Shown: in pieces, positions 19,254 to 44,786 of the stretch | How the letters are laid out: the number at the start of each line of letters is the position of its first letter | Position numbering within the stretch: position 1 is the stretch's first letter | DNA from: a virus | Taxonomy: Duplodnaviria > Caudoviricetes | Virus record (IMG/VR): IMGVR_UViG_3300013121_000022 | Coordinates: 108,505 to 172,504 of that record | Direction: 5' to 3' (one strand) | Length of the DNA: 64,000 bases | The notes under the pieces: model-generated | Seen by the model: only the letters and a program-made list of their open reading frames with translations | Databases searched by the model: none | Told to the model about the DNA's origin: nothing | Position numbers and translations under genes: made by a program

Positions 19254-20147
19254 ATGGGATACGCACACATCGAAAATCTTTACAAGCCACATGTAAAAGA
19301 ACTTCTCTTTATGTTTCGGGAAGTCTATGCACTCGAAAAGATACATGGATGCTCCGCCGAAATTAAGTTTACCGCCGAGATTGGAACTGGCAAAGTTGAT
19401 GTTAGTTTTGACGGTGGGCTATTGTCGCCAGAACAATTCTCAAACATTATCGACAAGTCTATTGTAGAAAAGTTCGTGGAACTGAACAAGCAATACAACA
19501 ACGAAAGCATGTCTGTGTTTGGTGAGCTCTACGGTGGATCGATCAACCATATGAGCAAGGTGTATGGAGAGGAAAAACGCTTTGTTGTTTTTGATGTCAA
19601 GGTTGGCGATGTTTTCTTGTCTGTGCCACAGGCCGAAGACACAGCGAATCGACTTGGACTGGAATTCGTATCTTACAAGCGCATTCCGGTAACGATTGAA
19701 GCCATTGATGCTGAACGGGACGCCGAATCGGTTCAGGCTATCCGCGTCGGAATGGGTTCTGGCAAATATCGCGAAGGTGTGGTTTTGCGTCCGTTGTTTG
19801 AAGCACGACTGAATAACGGCGAGCGAATTGTAGCCAAACACAAGCGTCCAGAACATTCTGAAACAAAGACTCCGCGAACTCTGAATGAGGATGAACTGAA
19901 AGTCCTGTCCGATGCCAATGAAGTTGCAGAGGAATGGGTTACGGAAACCAGACTCCAGCATGTCTTGGACAAGATTACCGGAACACGAGATATGAAGTTG
20001 ATGGGAACGGTAATAAAGGCCATGACTGAGGATGTGTACCGAGAGGCGCATGGCGAAATCGTGGAATCCAAAGCTATTCAAGGCGCAATCAGCAAGAAAA
20101 CGGTTGCGCTTTACAAGAACTACCTTGAAACCGACAGCGTTCAATAA
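19254..20147 (+). CDS. ATP-dependent RNA ligase (Rnl2-like)
   Basis: motif I EKIHG, GELYG, FDV, EGVVLR, terminal K motif. Confidence 0.85.
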   Translation: MGYAHIENLYKPHVKELLFMFREVYALEKIHGCSAEIKFTAEIGTGKVDVSFDGGLLSPEQFSNIIDKSIVEKFVELNKQYNNESMSVFGELYGGSINHMSKVYGEEKRFVVFDVKVGDVFLSVPQAEDTANRLGLEFVSYKRIPVTIEAIDAERDAESVQAIRVGMGSGKYREGVVLRPLFEARLNNGERIVAKHKRPEHSETKTPRTLNEDELKVLSDANEVAEEWVTETRLQHVLDKITGTRDMKLMGTVIKAMTEDVYREAHGEIVESKAIQGAISKKTVALYKNYLETDSVQ

Positions 20148-20384
20148 CAAAATTGAAGCACTGCTAGTCGATTTACATCGATGGGGAGTGCTTCAATGTA
20201 TTATCCGACAAGATCAAATGTTTTGCACTCCACCTGTAGCCGGACGTCCATCAATTGTTGATATGTTTGAAGTTGAATGGAGCGTTCATTCAGTCAAAGA
20301 CGTTCCAGAGATCGTCTTGTACGTGACGGACACTACAGCCTACACGCGATTGCACAAATGGAATCAGAAAGAAAGCTTACTGAC

Positions 20385-21110
20385 ATGGACAATCTAAAAG
20401 AGATTGGGCAAACATGGATTGTTGAATTTCCAAGAACAAAACATCTTCCATTTCGCCCTAACGCCACTCGTGATGACCTAATTGCTACCCAAGTTCAGGC
20501 AAGCATTATTTTTGATCCGGCAGTTGTCGTATCAACAACTGAAAAAGTAGACGGGGCACAATTGGGAGTTGGAATTGTTGATGGTAATCTTTGTATCCGC
20601 AACCGAAATCACGTGCTCAATAAAGGTTATCTCAGTCGCGGGGCGGCAGGCCGACAATTTGCGCCAACATGGACGTATTTTTACAAGCGAATTGAAGCAC
20701 TAAAGGCAATGGAAAAGTTCGCAGGTGAGCCTTTGGTAATTTACGGAGAGTGGTTGTATGCGGTTCATTCAATTGTTTATGACACTTTAACTGTTCCGTT
20801 TTTGAGTTATGATATTTATTTGCCGGAACAAAAGATATTTATTAAAGGTGCTCTGGCTAGATCGCTACTAGAAAACTTTGGATGGTCAGTTGTTGAACAA
20901 CTTGAAAACAAGGGATCGTATGAAGAATTGTCGAAGTTGTGTCACCAAAAATCGGCCTATGGATCGACTAAGCGAGAGGGTGTTTATCTGTCGGTCTGCG
21001 CCGATAAAAAATCAGTCACACATCGATTCAAAATGGTACGTTCAGATTTCATTACTGGTGAACACTGGTCTAAGCGATCTATTATCAAGCAACCTATGGT
21101 GAGGTTTTAA
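20385..21110 (+). CDS. RNA ligase family nucleotidyltransferase
   Basis: PRTKHLP, TEKVDG, YGEW, REGV, RFKMVR. Confidence 0.85.
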   Translation: MDNLKEIGQTWIVEFPRTKHLPFRPNATRDDLIATQVQASIIFDPAVVVSTTEKVDGAQLGVGIVDGNLCIRNRNHVLNKGYLSRGAAGRQFAPTWTYFYKRIEALKAMEKFAGEPLVIYGEWLYAVHSIVYDTLTVPFLSYDIYLPEQKIFIKGALARSLLENFGWSVVEQLENKGSYEELSKLCHQKSAYGSTKREGVYLSVCADKKSVTHRFKMVRSDFITGEHWSKRSIIKQPMVRF

Positions 21111-22180: not shown

Positions 22181-22355
22181 CGTGGGATTGAAAGTCACAT
22201 GGAATGACAACGGATTAACCCGATGGGATTATTTTGAACTTGTCATTCGCAACGGGCAGGAATTAGTTTTGTCGGGTTTTGGAAAAACCGTTCACATCAA
22301 GGTTGAGGACTTGAAATATATCGAACCATTTGGAAAGTTACCAGAAAACGGTTGA
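22170..22355 (+). CDS. hypothetical protein
   Basis: AAGGTG RBS. Confidence 0.5.
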   Translation: MEISVGLKVTWNDNGLTRWDYFELVIRNGQELVLSGFGKTVHIKVEDLKYIEPFGKLPENG

Positions 22356-22490
22356 TGCCATTTGTATACTCTGTGATGTAGAAATCCAGCATACCGCGTT
22401 CGCGGAGGCATAAGAATGGGTGCAACCTGTGGTCTTGTCTGAGTAGGCAAAGGTCATGAACTTTGTTTGAATGGCATCATCCGTTTTCTG
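22342..22490 (+). ncRNA. candidate structured RNA, about 150 nt
   Basis: about 21-bp closing stem CAGAAAACGG-T-TGATGCCATTT/GAATGGCATCA-T-CCGTTTTCTG. Confidence 0.55.
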
Positions 22491-22569
22491 ATAAATTCGG
22501 TGGTACGATAACGCAAGTAATCTTGAAATTGATCCTTGACAGGATAGCAAAAGCGACTATAATTTTTTT

Positions 22570-23570
22570 CTGTTGGCCTGAACTTTACAAAAATTACTGA
22601 GGGCGCTAATGGAGTTCAACTCTCCATCAGTAACATATCCAAATTGGAGTGGGGTAGTGCATACCCAAATCAAGGGAGGAAGCAAGCGAAAGCAAGCTGA
22701 AACCTGAGATTGAAACTCTAAGGCGGAGGGAACATCTAGTTCCCTTAGATAAAACCCGTAAGGGTAATAAAGGCGGATACCAATGGTCTGCCGGATGCAA
22801 ATCTCAACTAGACGAACTATCTTCGCTTGTGTTGGTGTAGGTGGTCGGCAAGAAATTGCAGGCTACTGAACAGCTAAGCCCACTGAAAAGGTGGTGAGTC
22901 CGAAAGACAAAACAATAAGATAGAGGGTAACAAGTTCGTTCGCAAGACGGGCGCTTACAAGACAATCGGCATCACTCCTAGCGGAACTTGCCAGAAAGTT
23001 AAGCGGTTACTGACAGCAAATCAGTGGCGGCAAAATGTGTGGTGTGGTAAAGGGATGCGTAAAAGTGTCTACAACCCGACAGGATACATCACGCACAATT
23101 GGAAAAACTCTGCCTGAAGCTCAGGCTTGGCCTCTTAAGCAAATGCAATCGCAAAAATAAAGTCCTGTAGGTGTACGAGATTTACAGATACCCCTTCATT
23201 ACCGTAACCAATCGGTGAATCAAGGCCACGAGCTTTGATATGTGCAACGAGTGAAGGATGTTCGGCGGCTTGCAACCGTTGGGCATCAGGCGCGGCGAGT
23301 GCATAGAAGATTTCGTAAACCTGAGTGGGTTGGGCTAAACCCACAAAAAGAAACTAAGCGACATCGTAAGCACAACGATACGCAAGGATAGCGGGGTAAA
23401 GTGTAGGATGATTGGGGTAACTCGATCTTGGAACAGAGCGGACACTGTGACGAACAGAACTGCTTGACTCTACACTAAAAAACGGAATGTGGCCTGAACC
23501 GTTTCTTGAAACGACTACCCTCTGGACTATATAGTCGAATGGACATATAATTCAGAGAGTGGTCATTTTT
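22570..23570 (+). ncRNA. large ornate ncRNA, about 1 kb (GOLLD-like candidate)
   Basis: consensus TTGACA/TATAAT promoter upstream, no + strand ORF, many GNRA hairpins, terminal hairpin plus T run. Confidence 0.65.
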
Positions 23571-23597
23571 GTTTAACCGAAAGATGGAAAATTTTAC

Positions 23598-24194
23598 ATG
23601 AAGATGAATGCTGTTATGGTCGGAGATGTACACGGCAAGTGGGATCAATTCAAGTCGATTGCTGAAAAGGCAACGATGCCTGTGTTTCAGGTCGGTGACT
23701 TTGGATTTGGACTACGGAATCGTAAGCCCAACATCAAAGGCGATTGGCGTTTCATTCGCGGCAATCATGACGATCCAAGTTTAGCTAAAAAGGACAGTCA
23801 TTATGCTGGCGACTTTGGCGTTTGGAACGGAGTGTTCTTTGTTTCGGGCGCAGCTTCAATTGATGTTGGTCAGCGTACTACTGGTGTTGACTGGTGGCCG
23901 GATGAACAATTGAATTACACGCAAATGCAAGAGGCATACAATCTGTATGTAAGATTTAAGCCAAAAATTGTTATCACTCATGATTGTCCAGATCATTTCA
24001 AGTCGCATTTTATGACCTATGTCATCAAGCGATCCTCGACCGGAGTTTTATTGAATGCACTATATGAATTTCATGAGCCAGAGTTGTGGGTTTTTGGTCA
24101 TCACCACAAAAGTCAGCAAACTCGATTCGGAAAAACAATGTTTGTTGGCCTTAGAGAACTTGAAACCCAAGAAATTGAATGGACGATTCCATAA
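23598..24194 (+). CDS. calcineurin-like metallophosphoesterase
   Basis: GDVHG, VGDFG, GNHD, THDCP, GHHH. Confidence 0.9.
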   Translation: MKMNAVMVGDVHGKWDQFKSIAEKATMPVFQVGDFGFGLRNRKPNIKGDWRFIRGNHDDPSLAKKDSHYAGDFGVWNGVFFVSGAASIDVGQRTTGVDWWPDEQLNYTQMQEAYNLYVRFKPKIVITHDCPDHFKSHFMTYVIKRSSTGVLLNALYEFHEPELWVFGHHHKSQQTRFGKTMFVGLRELETQEIEWTIP

Positions 24195-26675: not shown

Positions 26676-26748
26676 GGGCAGGCATGTTCTAAGGGAGCGA
26701 GGAATACTTGCAATATTCCTGTTGTGGGTTCGATTCCCATTCTGTCCA
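26676..26748 (+). tRNA. tRNA-Ala(TGC)
   Basis: G3-U70, loop CTTGCAA, atypical D arm. Confidence 0.85.
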
Positions 26749-26751
26749 CTA

Positions 26752-27410
26752 TGATGCAACGTAAAGATAGTGATTGCATCATTATTAATAATATCTGTGT
26801 CCTATCTGTCTGGTCTGGTTTGGTCAGAGAAAAACATCGGAACACTAGGCGAAGATTTTCGAGCAGATTTCATAAATTGGTTTATGCGCGATGGGCTTGT
26901 CAGTCCAATGACAATCGCGTTGAAGGGTGCGCCTCTGTAACCGCACTCCCATAACATGAGGCAAAGCTTGTAAGAGACAAGTGGAAGTAGGGTTTTCAAG
27001 TCTGCTATCTAATAACCACACTCCGTCACTAGGGAAGCGTGAGCCGAAACGATGTGGCGCAGAGGAAAAACTTGCAGACATGCACATTTCAAATTCTATA
27101 TTCTGTTGTTCAGGGCGAGTGATTGACTGATCATCAACATTCGTTATAATCATCGCGTAAAAACTGTTGCCATAACAGTAGCGCACTAGACTATACACTT
27201 TCGCTGGTCTAGGTTGAACAATACCAATGACATAGAGCATCACAAGTGGGAGATACGAGCGAATGCTTTGAAGCAGTAATGCTTCTTAACCCACGTGAGT
27301 CGTCCCGAATCTTACAGCTAGTGGTCGGTGGCGTGAAGGAAAAATCCTTTCACAGAAATGTGTCGCTTAATAATTTAGTTGGTATGTCTTATCGGCTTTG
27401 CAACCGATTG
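26752..27410 (+). ncRNA. large structured ncRNA, about 650 nt (ROOL-size candidate)
   Basis: no credible ORF, dense hairpins, bounded by two tRNA-Ala genes. Confidence 0.55.
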
Positions 27411-27444
27411 ATTTGAACAACAGAACATAGAATTTGAAGTTTTT

Positions 27445-29895: not shown

Positions 29896-29971
29896 GGAGT
29901 TGTCAGCATAACAGGCCATGCGTCCCGACTTCGCCTAAAGAAGATATGAGTTCGAGTCTCATACAGCTCCC
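29896..29971 (+). pseudogene. tRNA-like element with collapsed anticodon stem
   Basis: acceptor GGAGTTG/CAGCTCC, D stem GCAT/ATGC and T arm ATGAG-TTCGAGT-CTCAT intact; anticodon stem unpaired. Confidence 0.7.
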
Positions 29972-29974
29972 AAA

Positions 29975-30280
29975 TAACCTGAACAACACAAAGCCGACTT
30001 AGTTCATTGGATTGGACTGAGAGGGAGATTATAAAAGAGTGTTGTTGATTTACAAACAGGGAAGTCCAATTTAATCTGACTTGGACATTACTGGATATGA
30101 GAATGTTGTAAAGTAATAGATTGCGGTATCTGTTTACATAGGTCAGGAACTTCCCATTCAAGCCCTGCTGGTCGGCATTGCGCCGATTAGTGGAGCATGG
30201 TACTCAGCGGGTGCGGGAACACCCTTAAGATAGAGTATCAGCAACGCCACAAACGTTGATAAAACCGTCTGACCGTATTT
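29975..30280 (+). ncRNA. candidate structured RNA(s)
   Basis: AACAACAC/GTGTTGTT, GTCCAA/TTGGAC, GGTCAG/CTGACC and CTGGTCGGC/GCCGATTAG helices; no ORF. Confidence 0.45.
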
Positions 30281-30324
30281 GTTACTTGACAACATTCTCG
30301 TATCCAGTATAATCAGAAACACAT

Positions 30325-30983: not shown

Positions 30984-31264
30984 CAAACGTTTTGCTTCAT
31001 GGGCAAGACGGGTCAAGCGGAACGGTGGGTTCAATTCCCTGCAACGACAAACGTGCATTCGCTTGACTAGAAACGCTTTCAAAGAAATCCTCTGGCCTTG
31101 CCATTGCAGGGTAGTCCTGAAAAATTTTCCTTAGCGGGAAGAAAGAGCAAGGCGGCGAATCACGAAATGGCCGAAGTAACGGGTCGGCTAAACGCTAAGA
31201 GAAAGTGTCCGGCACATTGATTTCTTTGAAAGCATTTCTATAAACTCTCGAAAGGAACTTGAAC

Positions 31265-34215: not shown

Positions 34216-34818
34216 ATGAGACGTATCCGACACGGAACTTCAATCAAATTCGCCTTAAATAAATTTTCGCCCATGCAACACAAAGATGAATTCTTATGGT
34301 TATGGGATCATCTGCCTCCACTTGAAACAGTTTTGGAAATTGGCATGGGTTATGGCGCAACAGCGGCGTTGTTTGCTTTTTCGGGCGCACAGGTTACAAC
34401 GATTGATCCAAAAGTAAAAACCGAATTGTATCAAGAGGTTGATGAAAACGAAGAATACACATTTGACTCACCGGAGTTCAAAAAGTTAGCGTGGTGGGCA
34501 AAGCCAGTTCGCTGGATAAGAAAATCAAGTCTTGACAAAACAGTAATTAGTGATGTAGAATTACCAAGCAATCAGAAATACGATTTACTACACATTGACG
34601 GAGATCATTCGCCAGAGGTATGTAGATCGGATTGGGAAACGTTCTCTCCAATGGCAAAGATAGTTGCCATTCATGATATTTATGGATGGGACAATGATAT
34701 GCACTGGAAGGATGGGCCAAGAGGTTTGTGGAGTGAACTTCGGGAAAGTAAGCAGTATAAAATGCAAGAGTGTTGTTTGCATGAAAGCGGCGGAATGGGA
34801 TTGATATGGATGTCATAA
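34216..34818 (+). CDS. class I SAM-dependent methyltransferase (Methyltransf_24-like)
   Basis: VLEIGMGYG, DLLHIDGDH, IVAIHD. Confidence 0.85.
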   Translation: MRRIRHGTSIKFALNKFSPMQHKDEFLWLWDHLPPLETVLEIGMGYGATAALFAFSGAQVTTIDPKVKTELYQEVDENEEYTFDSPEFKKLAWWAKPVRWIRKSSLDKTVISDVELPSNQKYDLLHIDGDHSPEVCRSDWETFSPMAKIVAIHDIYGWDNDMHWKDGPRGLWSELRESKQYKMQECCLHESGGMGLIWMS

Positions 34819-35069
34819 CTGCGGAATATACGATTAGGCCAGCACGATATGCCAAAAAAATGTTTGCAGTAGAAACCGTTCCAAATGGAACGGGATGGAA
34901 AACAAAAGCAGATCGGGCGGCAGAGGCCGCACAAGGAAAAACAGTTCGTTACTCACATCGCGAAAAGTCGTACATTTTATCGGCTAGACAAGTCGAAAAA
35001 TTCAAAGCTTTGATGTCAAGTAACAACAATATTTTCACTAAAGAATTGCTCGCGAGGACTAACGGCTAG
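34806..35069 (+). CDS. hypothetical protein
   Basis: 87-aa ORF; 3' end overlaps tRNA-Asp. Confidence 0.55.
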   Translation: MDVITAEYTIRPARYAKKMFAVETVPNGTGWKTKADRAAEAAQGKTVRYSHREKSYILSARQVEKFKALMSSNNNIFTKELLARTNG

Positions 35070-35122
35070 GTCGTTTCTCTGTCAAAGAAACAGTCAAGCG
35101 GGTTCGACTCCCGTCGTGGGCG
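35048..35122 (+). tRNA. tRNA-Asp(GTC)
   Basis: loop CTGTCAA, G73. Confidence 0.85.
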
Positions 35123-35128
35123 CACGTT

Positions 35129-35321
35129 GTTGTTAGCATTGAGAGTGTAGCACATTTTTGATTGACGCCGACTTGTTGCGTCGGACGTGCTATCACACGA
35201 CAATCAAAAGTCCCTCACAAGGGATAAGTTGTCAGGCAACCATTGATAGATGTGACAATGAAAGGGCTACCGGAACTTATCCGGTTTCGATCTTGATCGA
35301 AACCCTCTCAATGCTAACAAC
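35129..35321 (+). ncRNA. candidate pseudoknotted RNA, 193 nt
   Basis: perfect 17-bp closing helix; crossing helices TAGCAC/GTGCTA and TTTTGATTG/CAATCAAAA. Confidence 0.65.
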
Positions 35322-35323
35322 TA

Positions 35324-35453
35324 ATTTACAAGTAGTAGCATATAACATACGATAGCATAAGGCTGACTACTTTGAGGCTGAAGCTTGGTTGCAAACAATT
35401 AGTAAGCCGGAACAGCTCTGACTACGCGAAGTTGTATGCTGTTGCTTGTAAAT
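35324..35453 (+). ncRNA. candidate structured RNA, 130 nt
   Basis: 23-bp closing helix ATTTACAAGTAGTAGCATATAAC/GTTGTATGCTGTTGCTTGTAAAT with G-U pairs. Confidence 0.6.
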
Positions 35454-35459
35454 TAATCT

Positions 35460-35531
35460 GCCGCTGTAGGCTAATGGATAAACCGCTAGTCTTCGGAACT
35501 AGCTTTCAGGGTTCGAGTCCCTGTGGCGGCG
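35460..35531 (+). tRNA. tRNA-Arg(TCG)
   Basis: loop CTTCGGA. Confidence 0.9.
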
Positions 35532-35644
35532 CTGAGTTATCTGGTTGCTTGCACGAGATGGATCGATACGTTGACGTGAGTTATTCTCAATAAAATTTAT
35601 GTATTGGCGTGAAGAACCAAACATAGAAATAACCAGACGTTTAT

Positions 35645-37823: not shown

Positions 37824-37930
37824 CAAGCACTCATTATCATGGGTGCTTTTTTTATTGATCGGCGCAGAGCGCGCCTTTAATATTGACACTTGAAATCAAC
37901 TAAGGGACAATTAAGAAAAGGAAAACATTC

Positions 37931-42429: not shown

Positions 42430-44307
42430 ATGACTCTTAAATTGGGCGCACACTGTTTAACTGGCACATCGGATGCCATACGTTTGGCGCAAGCCGGAAT
42501 GAAAATATTCAAGGTTATCGACAACGCTGGTATGGCGGACGATATTTTGAAAATTGTTCCAGACGCAACTATCATTGGATTGATTAGCACCGACTATCGT
42601 CCGGTGGAAGATTACGACAAACTTACACCTAAACAGGCCGCAAACAAATTCTTCAACAACATCGTTGGAGGAATGCGATCTGCGAAGTCAGTCAAAATGT
42701 GGGAAGGGCCAAACGAACCGTTGTGCGATACGATGGAACGCATGGATTTTTTCAATGCTTTTACTATTGAAATGATCGATCTCATGGCCGCAGAAGGCTG
42801 GAAATATGTGGTGGGTGGTTTTTCGGTTGGACAACCCCGTTTAGATATACCAGTATGGGAACATTATTTGCCTGCTATTCGCTACGGAATGCAACATGGT
42901 GCGTGGTTGGGCTTGCATGAATATTCGTGGCCGGATATGCGATGGATGTATGGTCATAACCAGATTGATCCTAATGAAGACGCCGGAGATGAAGGTTGGG
43001 TTACACTTCGCTATCGCAAGGTCTATAGACAATTTTTAATTCCAAACAACTTGGTAATCCCGCTAATTATGACTGAGGCGGGAATTGATTCGGGCGTCAA
43101 CCCGAAACCATTTGACGGTGGGGGTAATTTCCGCGATCAGGGTTATCGCGACGGAATCGATCAATGGAACAATGCGGTTCAAGAACCGAATGCTTATTAC
43201 GCTCGAAACTTGATGTGGTATGAATCGGAACTCGCCAAAGACGACTATGTTGTGGGCGCAACAGTTTTTACCATTGGAAGCACAGCTCGCTGGACGGATT
43301 TTGATATTGCAGGCACTGGTGTTATCGATGAACTAATAAAATATTTCAATGGCACTAAAAAGTTCGAGCCTTATCCGTCGGCCTACAAGCCTCTCAACAA
43401 TCAGTTAGTCAATCCATCATTTGAGGGCGGCTATTACAAACACAACGGAATCACTGAACTGCCCGTACCGGATGGCTGGAAATTTTGGTATCAAACTGAC
43501 ACCAGTTTACGACTTCCTAATCAACAGTTTCAGTTTTATCCGCCAGAAAACGTTGTATGGAATTACATTCAGGCTAATCGACGCGATCAAATTGCATTTT
43601 TCCGATCCGGCAAACGCATTCTAAAATGCTTCAAGGGTTGGGGAGCAATCTGGTTCAAGTTCAGTCAAAAGGCAAAAACAGTTGTTGGGCACACTTACAG
43701 GTTTTCGGTAGATGTATATCCAGATTTAGTTGCTGATTACGATAAATTCGGCAACAAAGTTTTTGCCACTGATCCGATCTGCGGTGAGCATCGCGTTACT
43801 CTGGACGATGGTTGGTTTGATTGGCAGGATGGACGCAAACACCGATTTGGTGAATGGAGTACATTATCGGCCTCATTTGTTGCTACTCAATCAGAACATG
43901 AAGTTGGATTTGAAATTAGAGGTCGTTACGGACTCAAAAACAATGGCTGGTTTATTGACAATGCGATCTTAGAAGACACAAGTATAAACGTTCCGCCTGT
44001 GGTCACTCCACCTGTGGTCGTTCCGCCCGTTGTTACTCCACCTGTAGTGACTCCGCCTCCAGTAGTTGTTTCTCCAGAAACAACATTATCTGTTTTGGAT
44101 CGAGTAAAAGTAAATTCGCTGATCGGATTGAGAGTTCGGGAGACTCCAAGTATTACAGGAAAAATTTTAGCCGTTGAATCTTATGGCGCAAAGGGTTATG
44201 TCATGCGCGATAAAGTTGTCAAAGATGGAGTGACTTGGTATAAAGTTTTGTACGACAACGATATATACGGTTGGTCATCAATGGCCTATTTGGAGAAAAC
44301 GTCATGA
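42430..44307 (+). CDS. putative glycoside hydrolase with carbohydrate-binding-like domain, Pro/Val linker and SH3b domain
   Basis: WEGPNEP, GLHEY, MTEAG; NPSFEG; (PPVVT)n; LRVRETPS..WYKV..GW. Confidence 0.7.
   Translation: MTLKLGAHCLTGTSDAIRLAQAGMKIFKVIDNAGMADDILKIVPDATIIGLISTDYRPVEDYDKLTPKQAANKFFNNIVGGMRSAKSVKMWEGPNEPLCDTMERMDFFNAFTIEMIDLMAAEGWKYVVGGFSVGQPRLDIPVWEHYLPAIRYGMQHGAWLGLHEYSWPDMRWMYGHNQIDPNEDAGDEGWVTLRYRKVYRQFLIPNNLVIPLIMTEAGIDSGVNPKPFDGGGNFRDQGYRDGIDQWNNAVQEPNAYYARNLMWYESELAKDDYVVGATVFTIGSTARWTDFDIAGTGVIDELIKYFNGTKKFEPYPSAYKPLNNQLVNPSFEGGYYKHNGITELPVPDGWKFWYQTDTSLRLPNQQFQFYPPENVVWNYIQANRRDQIAFFRSGKRILKCFKGWGAIWFKFSQKAKTVVGHTYRFSVDVYPDLVADYDKFGNKVFATDPICGEHRVTLDDGWFDWQDGRKHRFGEWSTLSASFVATQSEHEVGFEIRGRYGLKNNGWFIDNAILEDTSINVPPVVTPPVVVPPVVTPPVVTPPPVVVSPETTLSVLDRVKVNSLIGLRVRETPSITGKILAVESYGAKGYVMRDKVVKDGVTWYKVLYDNDIYGWSSMAYLEKTS
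43990..44070 (+). repeat. coding tandem repeat (PPVVT)n linker
   Basis: about five degenerate 15-bp units. Confidence 0.75.
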
Positions 44308-44786
44308 AATTGTATGCGCGAGTATTAACAGTTTTTGTTACATCGATTGTAACGATGATTGGACTTGTAGGTTTTAGTTTGCTGGCAACTCCATTTGCTT
44401 TATCGGCGGTTGCAACTCCTACTGCTCCGTTTCTATGTTTTGATAGCGTGGGTGAACCATATATTCTCGTGCCTCTCAAAACTCAATTAGCTTTGACTGA
44501 AATCGCATTAACTCCAACATCAACCCCAACGCGATTTCCAACACCAACTAACCTGCCAGAAAAACCGTGTTCAATAGGAACTGCGACGGTGGTTACTTCT
44601 GTTTTGAATGTAAGATCGGGTGCTGGCACAACGTTTTCTCTTGTCGGTGCTTCTCTGAAAAAAGGTGATACGTTTGACATCGCAGAGGTTAAAGGTACAT
44701 GGTTACGCCTGTGCGATTCAACGCAAAAATGGGTCAACTCTAAACTCGAAAACGGCACAGTCTTAGTAACCTACAAACTAAAATAA
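44304..44786 (+). CDS. secreted SH3b-domain protein with Pro/Thr linker
   Basis: signal-like N-term, TPTSTPT, LNVRSGAGT..WLRL..WV. Confidence 0.8.
   Translation: MKLYARVLTVFVTSIVTMIGLVGFSLLATPFALSAVATPTAPFLCFDSVGEPYILVPLKTQLALTEIALTPTSTPTRFPTPTNLPEKPCSIGTATVVTSVLNVRSGAGTTFSLVGASLKKGDTFDIAEVKGTWLRLCDSTQKWVNSKLENGTVLVTYKLK

Follow-up and report, generated by a model that had tools for sequence, protein, structure and literature searches.

What occupies the 336 bases between the genes for tRNA-Asp(GUC) and tRNA-Arg(UCG) in the tRNA island of this phage? The window analyzed here is a stretch of 64,000 nt, corresponding to bases 108505 to 172504 of a 172,504-bp IMG/VR phage record that is complete and has direct repeats at its termini. 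The phage has 46 tRNA genes plus a tmRNA, nearly all of them on the plus strand. The original prediction placed two structured RNAs back to back in the gap and held that they fill it almost exactly. This proved correct: element 1 (35129-35321) and element 2 (35322-35455) account for 327 of the 336 bases between the two tRNAs and abut at 35321|35322 with no linker (Table 1).

Table 1. Features in and around the interval between tRNA-Asp and tRNA-Arg, in window coordinates
Feature	Position	Strand	Remarks
Nearest strong upstream promoter-like site	34532..34561	+	TTGACA, 18 nt, TAGAAT; 11/12
tRNA-Asp(GUC)	35048..35123	+	no encoded CCA
Single-stranded 5-nt tail from tRNA-Asp to the first helix	35124..35128	+	
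Element 1 closing helix, 5' strand	35129..35145	+	pairs with 35305-35321; pair probability 0.94-1.0
Candidate pseudoknot core	35147..35209	+	P1, P2 and P3; HDV-like topology, non-canonical
P1 of the core	35147-53/35187-93		
P2 of the core	35156-64/35201-09		
P3 of the core	35168-72/35180-84		7-nt loop
6-bp hairpin with CACA loop	35210..35225	+	pair probability 0.8-0.97
TTGTCA/TGACAA hairpin with large loop	35229..35258	+	weak prediction; pair probability ~0.44
Adjacent hairpins: CCGGA/TCCGG and 10-bp palindrome GGTTTCGATC/GATCGAAACC	35270..35304	+	two G residues common to both
Element 1 closing helix, 3' strand	35305..35321	+	contiguous with element 2
Element 2 closing helix, 5' strand	35322..35346	+	25 bp with 35431-35455; 4 G-U
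Element 2 interior, 84 nt	35347..35430	+	two copies of CTGACTAC
Element 2 closing helix, 3' strand	35431..35455	+	
4-nt tail ATCT before tRNA-Arg	35456..35459	+	expected RNase P leader
tRNA-Arg(UCG)	35460..35532	+	

Both elements are closed by long helices. That of element 1 is the perfect 17-bp helix originally described, with 17 of 17 pairs Watson-Crick. The helix of element 2 had been described as 23 bp long with G-U pairs; both the helix and its G-U pairs exist, but it extends to 25 bp, composed of 21 Watson-Crick and 4 G-U pairs with no A-C on the plus strand. All three hairpins predicted within element 1 were located: CCGAC/GTCGG (which forms P3 of the candidate core in Table 1), CCGGA/TCCGG (35270-74/35280-84), and TTTCGATC/GATCGAAA, the last of which lengthens to 10 bp (35283-92/35295-35304). 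When folded with ViennaRNA, element 1 reaches -75.8 kcal/mol (z = -6.8) and element 2 reaches -45.6 kcal/mol (z = -5.1), and no shuffled sequence folded equally well for either. We also scanned the genome for uninterrupted long-range helices with an inner span of at least 80 nt and at least 17 Watson-Crick pairs: the real genome has three such helices and 40 dinucleotide-shuffled versions of it have none, indicating that they are real features and not products of chance. The three are those of element 1, element 2, and a further element at 30089-30309, all within 5.4 kb of tRNA island.

Element 1 without its closing helix, an interior of 159 nt, retains structure (z = -3.0 for the plus strand and -4.5 for the minus strand), comprising a 9-bp helix around a 5-bp hairpin, followed by three or four more hairpins. 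The 84-nt interior of element 2, again with the closing helix removed, folds no better than shuffles (z = +0.3), and this element is essentially a 25-bp stem presenting a large open loop. Within this unstructured loop, the 8-mer CTGACTAC occurs twice (35363-70 and 35418-25; we estimate the chance of coincidence at ~5%), as does GGCTGA (35361-66 and 35376-81); these repeats could be binding sites or could be due to chance.

The G-U pairs of element 2 had been taken to favor RNA over a DNA cruciform; a reading at the level of RNA is supported for element 2 but not for element 1. Element 2 forms 9 G-U pairs on the plus strand, where it folds at -44.8 kcal/mol, and 3 on the minus strand, where it folds at -32.1 kcal/mol; this excess of G-U pairs and the better fold, by 12.7 kcal/mol, argue that element 2 is a plus-strand RNA feature. 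Element 1, by comparison, folds slightly better on the minus strand (-79.7 kcal/mol, versus -74.6 kcal/mol on the plus strand), and, because its helices are perfect palindromes, its sequence demands no RNA over DNA.

Element 1 had also been credited with a clear pseudoknot. Both crossing helices exist: one consists of 6 Watson-Crick pairs (35148-53/35187-92) plus a G-U at 35147/35193, and the helix that it crosses consists of 9 Watson-Crick pairs and is the only one of the two that is individually significant. For the 6-bp helix, the chance probability is ~0.012 for the exact local arrangement, before correction for alternative placements. Its 5' strand can alternatively pair with GCUAC at 35267-71, creating a nested 5-bp GUAGC/GCUAC helix (pair probability of ~0.8) that is used in both the minimum-energy and the centroid folds, and a rough energy comparison places the pseudoknotted and nested folds within a few kcal/mol of each other. 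Given the weakness of the 6-bp helix and a nested competitor of comparable energy, a pseudoknot in element 1 is possible but not clear.

The surroundings of the gap bear on how it might be expressed. All 44 neighboring tRNAs, and the ORFs as well, lie on the plus strand, a strong promoter-like site is situated upstream, and the next terminator-like sites downstream are at 37825-37875, from which the Asp-Arg gap appears to lie inside a tRNA/small-ORF polycistron. The tRNA genes of the window encode the discriminator base and a single C, with CCA absent; T (U in the RNA) occupies position -1 nearly always, with AT at -2/-1 in most. Many tRNA pairs in this phage are only 1 to 3 nt apart, which fits dimeric precursors. 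The phage also encodes RtcB (genome positions 43245-44483, minus strand), two PF09414 RNA ligases (window positions 19254-20147 and 20277-21110), and a CCA-adding enzyme with an HD domain (genome positions 22292-23989), which, with the 46 tRNAs and the tmRNA, makes a complete RNA heal-and-seal toolkit.

Neither element has a recognizable family. The Rfam scan proposed as a check was run with Rfam 15, and, both at the gathering threshold and at E ≤ 10, it returned the two tRNAs and noise only. A small gene hidden in the gap was rejected: no ORF spanning the region matched a family, and one such ORF extends into tRNA-Arg. The original description of the gap as two unknown noncoding RNAs is thus upheld insofar as the sequence is noncoding, structured, and unmatched in Rfam; the number of RNAs is another matter, as the closing helices abut with no processing signal between them, such that two RNAs and one bipartite 336-nt RNA are not separable from the sequence.

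Searches for relatives gave a similar picture. Among 50,697 GenBank phage records (megablast and blastn), tRNA-Arg alone was matched and the elements were not. The 17-mer helix arm had four chance matches in IMG/VR, with no similarity beyond the 17-mer, and anchors composed of the tRNA-Asp 3' half and the tRNA-Arg 5' half had no match in that database. Single-sequence covariance models (R2 for element 1 and R1 for element 2) detected nothing above noise in the phage's own genome, in which both elements are single-copy, in 35 distant large-phage records (20 with homologues of a 293-aa neighbor protein and 15 with RNA ligase), or in 151 Anaerolineae genomes. The phage is itself an orphan, given that its neighbor proteins have only distant relatives; for the 293-aa protein, the best of these share ≤35% identity among 5.8 billion clusters. 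The RecA of the phage is ~56% identical to that of many bacteria and is uninformative as an anchor. The adjacent methyltransferase, whose gene is 230 bp upstream, has relatives at 55% (P0025, on an ENA contig of 156,216 bp) and 51% (P0026, on a JGI contig of 7,645 bp), the only ones to exceed 50% identity, and the contigs of both were not present in the IMG/VR scan or in two metagenome scans. The giant-RNA region, when used as a bridge to another phage, produced no blastn match. By sequence, both elements match no known family and look like new phage small RNAs.

On balance, we think that the Asp-Arg gap probably specifies a noncoding plus-strand spacer RNA that is transcribed together with the tRNAs and freed when the tRNA ends are processed; the helices and their statistics, the strand bias of element 2, the lack of a coding signal, and the geometry are shown by the sequence, whereas the transcription, processing steps, stability, and trans-acting role of this RNA are what we infer. 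The spacer RNA would be made within the tRNA/small-ORF polycistron, trimming of the CCA-less tRNA-Asp 3' end would cut 5 to 6 nt ahead of the first helix, and RNase P cleavage at tRNA-Arg would occur 4 nt past the last helix. Because the enzymes acting on tRNA ends would cut on both sides, an RNA of ~336 nt would be set free automatically, with tails of 5 to 6 nt and 4 nt. The released RNA would have two domains (193 and 134 nt), and, since the 17- and 25-bp closing helices follow each other directly on one strand, they could stack into a ~42-bp rod. In this arrangement, both termini would meet at the center of the rod, as in a nicked dumbbell, and should therefore be shielded from exonucleases. 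One end of the rod would bear a compact multi-hairpin lobe, which may be pseudoknotted, and the other would bear the 84-nt, largely unfolded loop. The 25-bp helix would be long enough for host RNase III, whose cleavage there would split or trim the domains. The likely role of such a molecule would be that of a protein-binding or decoy RNA in the RNA-repair/tRNA toolkit of the phage.

Several features of the genome support a spacer RNA of this kind, including the CCA-less tRNAs, the U that almost always precedes them at -1, and the presence of the CCA-adding enzyme, the RNA ligases, and RtcB, as do at least three further long-stem elements in other tRNA gaps, all of which fold better on the plus strand. 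Also in its favor are the helices in excess of chance, the strand difference of element 2, the plus-strand setting with its promoter-like and terminator-like sites, the ORFs unmatched to any family, and, from other phages, the 243-nt element and the T4 precedent described below. Counting against it are the unstructured interior of element 2, the palindromic nature of element 1 and its slightly better fold on the minus strand, and the lack of a homologue in any search, hence of a covariation or conservation signal.

The further long-stem elements are a varied set, and no paralogy exists among the five. The element at 30089-30309 (221 nt, with a 21-bp closing helix) is the most stable of them (z = -10.4, with 14 plus-strand G-U pairs); its helix has a 3' arm that coincides exactly with the spacer of a perfect TTGACA-16-TATAAT promoter (30286-30313) driving tRNA-Ile, and upstream of it, at ~29896-29971, is a tRNA-like sequence with acceptor and T arms that was not called by ARAGORN. 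The element at 27086-27440 (355 nt) has a closing helix in two 14-bp segments and ends 4 nt ahead of a tRNA-Ala, and a promoter-like site, TTGACT-16-TATAAT (27123-27150), is situated just inside its 5' arm. Similar leaders precede this tRNA-Ala and the one before it, at 26676, a likeness suggestive of duplication. The third, at 31075-31233 (159 nt), located 90 nt past tRNA-Val, is closed by a perfect 15-bp helix; it is the weakest case, with z = -2.5 for the whole element and an unstructured interior. The better fold on the plus strand is clear for 27086-27440 and 30089-30309 and only slight for 31075-31233.

Two elements of other viral genomes are also of note. One, from a distantly related phage of 235 kb (IMGVR_UViG_3300031997_000001), is a multi-hairpin element of 243 nt with a 22-bp closing helix (L007:5066-5308); it ends 6 nt upstream of tRNA-Pro, has z = -4.8, and is unmatched in Rfam. 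It resembles element 1 in architecture but is not homologous by the element 1 model, and, as only one such case, it calls for caution. The other (L009:6868-6999), located in a 122-kb provirus record at 3 kb from the nearest tRNA, is a perfect inverted repeat of 31 bp with a 70-nt interior and is probably unrelated.

The first alternative to a spacer RNA, which we regard as unlikely, is a cis-acting cassette whose duplexes serve as host RNase III entry sites or as folding insulators, with the enclosed sequence being functionless; such a cassette would cut the long tRNA/mRNA transcript into pieces. In keeping with this, a long closing helix is the only feature common to the five island elements, whose sequences are unrelated, and element 2 combines an unstructured interior with an uninterrupted duplex of 25 bp. 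Uninterrupted duplexes of this length are textbook RNase III substrates, as in the processing stalks of rRNA and T7, and, as in the rRNA-type stalks, the flanks of the RNA enclosed in element 2 pair into a long duplex, which would be cut to free that RNA. The elements depart from such stalks in that the RNA enclosed here measures 84 to 159 nt and in that the phage encodes no RNase III gene. Moreover, 336 nt would be a costly cut site in a genome in which most tRNA pairs are separated by 1 to 3 nt, and the interior of element 1 is itself structured on the plus strand.

Also to be weighed is a function, or a former mobility, at the level of DNA: the elements could be inverted repeats without any RNA function, either remnants of small mobile elements with terminal inverted repeats that entered the spacer of a tRNA dimer or protein-binding or cruciform sites. 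Both are bounded by terminal inverted repeats, element 1 is made of perfect palindromes and has no strand bias, and, among the other island elements, the 3' repeat of 30089-30309 is a perfect promoter spacer and the 5' repeat of 27086-27440 is followed, immediately to its inner side, by a promoter. We nevertheless consider this reading quite improbable. The flanks are devoid of a target-site duplication, the elements are single-copy in a genome without a paralogue, and the matches to the 17-mer repeat arm in IMG/VR are due to chance only. Each of the four mismatched positions in the repeat of element 2 reads as G-U, and never as A-C, on the plus strand, an outcome expected by chance 1 time in 16. 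Despite the inverted repeats, the absence of a target duplication and of a second copy argues against a MITE-like element.

A third reading concerns the candidate pseudoknot core of element 1, which would be a divergent, P4-less HDV-like (theta-type) putative self-cleaving ribozyme, cut between 35146 and 35147. Cleavage at this site would generate 5'-OH and cyclic-phosphate ends. In an extended version, the P4-less HDV-like fold would sit in the 17-bp clamp and the cut ends would be handled by the RtcB or RNA ligases of the phage, for example, in trimming or circularization; circularization of the spacer RNA is conceivable, as the stacked helices already bring both of its ends together. Both the ribozyme assignment and this extension of it strike us as very unlikely, even though the site has several of the attributes of theta ribozymes.

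We wrote a scanner from the theta-ribozyme layout given in the supplement of PMC10879173 (Kienbeck et al. 2024). The strict layout had zero matches in the window. A relaxed descriptor allowing a P3 of 3 to 5 bp and short linkers, which was loosened after the site had been seen, returned 35147-35209 as the only plus-strand match in the window and, over both strands of the 172 kb, as the single strong match; the other relaxed matches, one on the minus strand of the window and one in the remaining 108 kb, are both of minimal size. Shuffles yielded 0.44 relaxed matches per 64-kb strand, all totalling 16 bp, versus 21 bp here. Like theta ribozymes (PMC10879173), the site is in a phage and downstream of a tRNA, and its sequence allows a nested double pseudoknot in which P1 crosses P2 with P3 inside. 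Its P1 is 7 bp, with the G at +1 forming a G35147-U35193 wobble at the putative cleavage site; its L3 has 7 nt, within which a 2-bp P1.1 is possible at the canonical positions; and C-G-A stands ahead of P2'. Theta-ribozyme phages are reported to be strongly enriched in genes for CCA-adding enzyme and RNA ligase (PMC10879173), both of which this phage has, along with RtcB.

Other features depart from the theta layout. In element 1, P3 is 5 bp and not 3, and linkers of 3 nt (ACG) between P2 and P3 and 2 nt (AC) between P3 and P1' appear where the fold has none. A catalytic C that opens J4/2 behind a P4 helix, or behind an L4 linker of 5 nt or more as in the published theta set (PMC10879173), is lacking: only 5 nt (CACGA) separate P1.1' from P2', and L4, at 0 to 2 nt, is essentially absent. 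The L3 and P1.1 sequences deviate from the consensus, and the putative cut site is 23 to 24 nt past the end of tRNA-Asp, inside the 17-bp clamp, whereas cleavage in the theta subgroup is within 5 nt of the tRNA 3' end (PMC10879173). Among the HDV families of Rfam, none scored at E ≤ 10. With three defining features lacking, we do not assign element 1 to the HDV-like ribozymes.

Other classes were set aside. An RNase P-like "AAAGUCC" in element 1 was dropped, as it is within a local hairpin and RNase P models were unmatched; an anticodon-arm decoy was dropped, as the P3 loop (UUGUUGC) and the loop of the phage tRNA-Asn (CUGUUAA) have only U33-GUU in common; and a retron msr-msd RNA is excluded, with RVT_1 unmatched anywhere in the 172-kb genome. 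In Y RNAs (YrlA type, Ro60), too, a small RNA is closed by a long stem between its 5' and 3' ends, but the elements here are without a tRNA-like domain, the T-loop is absent, and RF02553 is unmatched in them; inspection by eye did not find in the elements the GCGTAT stem motif of the Ro-linked RNAs of this phage, which lie elsewhere in the genome.

For the spacer RNA that we favor, RNAC and RNAD of phage T4 offer the best analogy, and one that is positional only. In T4, rnaD (119 nt) and then rnaC (139 nt) stand back to back right after tRNA-Arg. Like the candidate RNAs here, they are paired back-to-back noncoding RNAs of 120 to 190 nt within a phage tRNA cluster, on the tRNA strand and a few bases from a tRNA. 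T4 rnaC terminates in a T-arm and an acceptor stem like those of a tRNA and is not closed by a long helix, and rnaD has only weak structure, whereas the elements here have closing helices of 17 and 25 bp and lack a T-arm; there is no sequence similarity between the T4 genes and the elements. The roles of RNAC (species 1) and RNAD (species 2) are still unknown (PMC3014915; PMC9697503).

Among the 46 tRNAs of this phage are at least three, and probably five, long-stem RNAs that are unrelated in sequence, and phage tRNA islands are turning out to be rich in uncatalogued structured RNAs. RNAC and RNAD of T4 are the founding examples from such islands and are still without a function in the literature after fifty years. 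If the spacer RNAs are stable and are bound by the RNA-repair proteins of the phage, they would provide a handle on the role of the RNAs in tRNA clusters.
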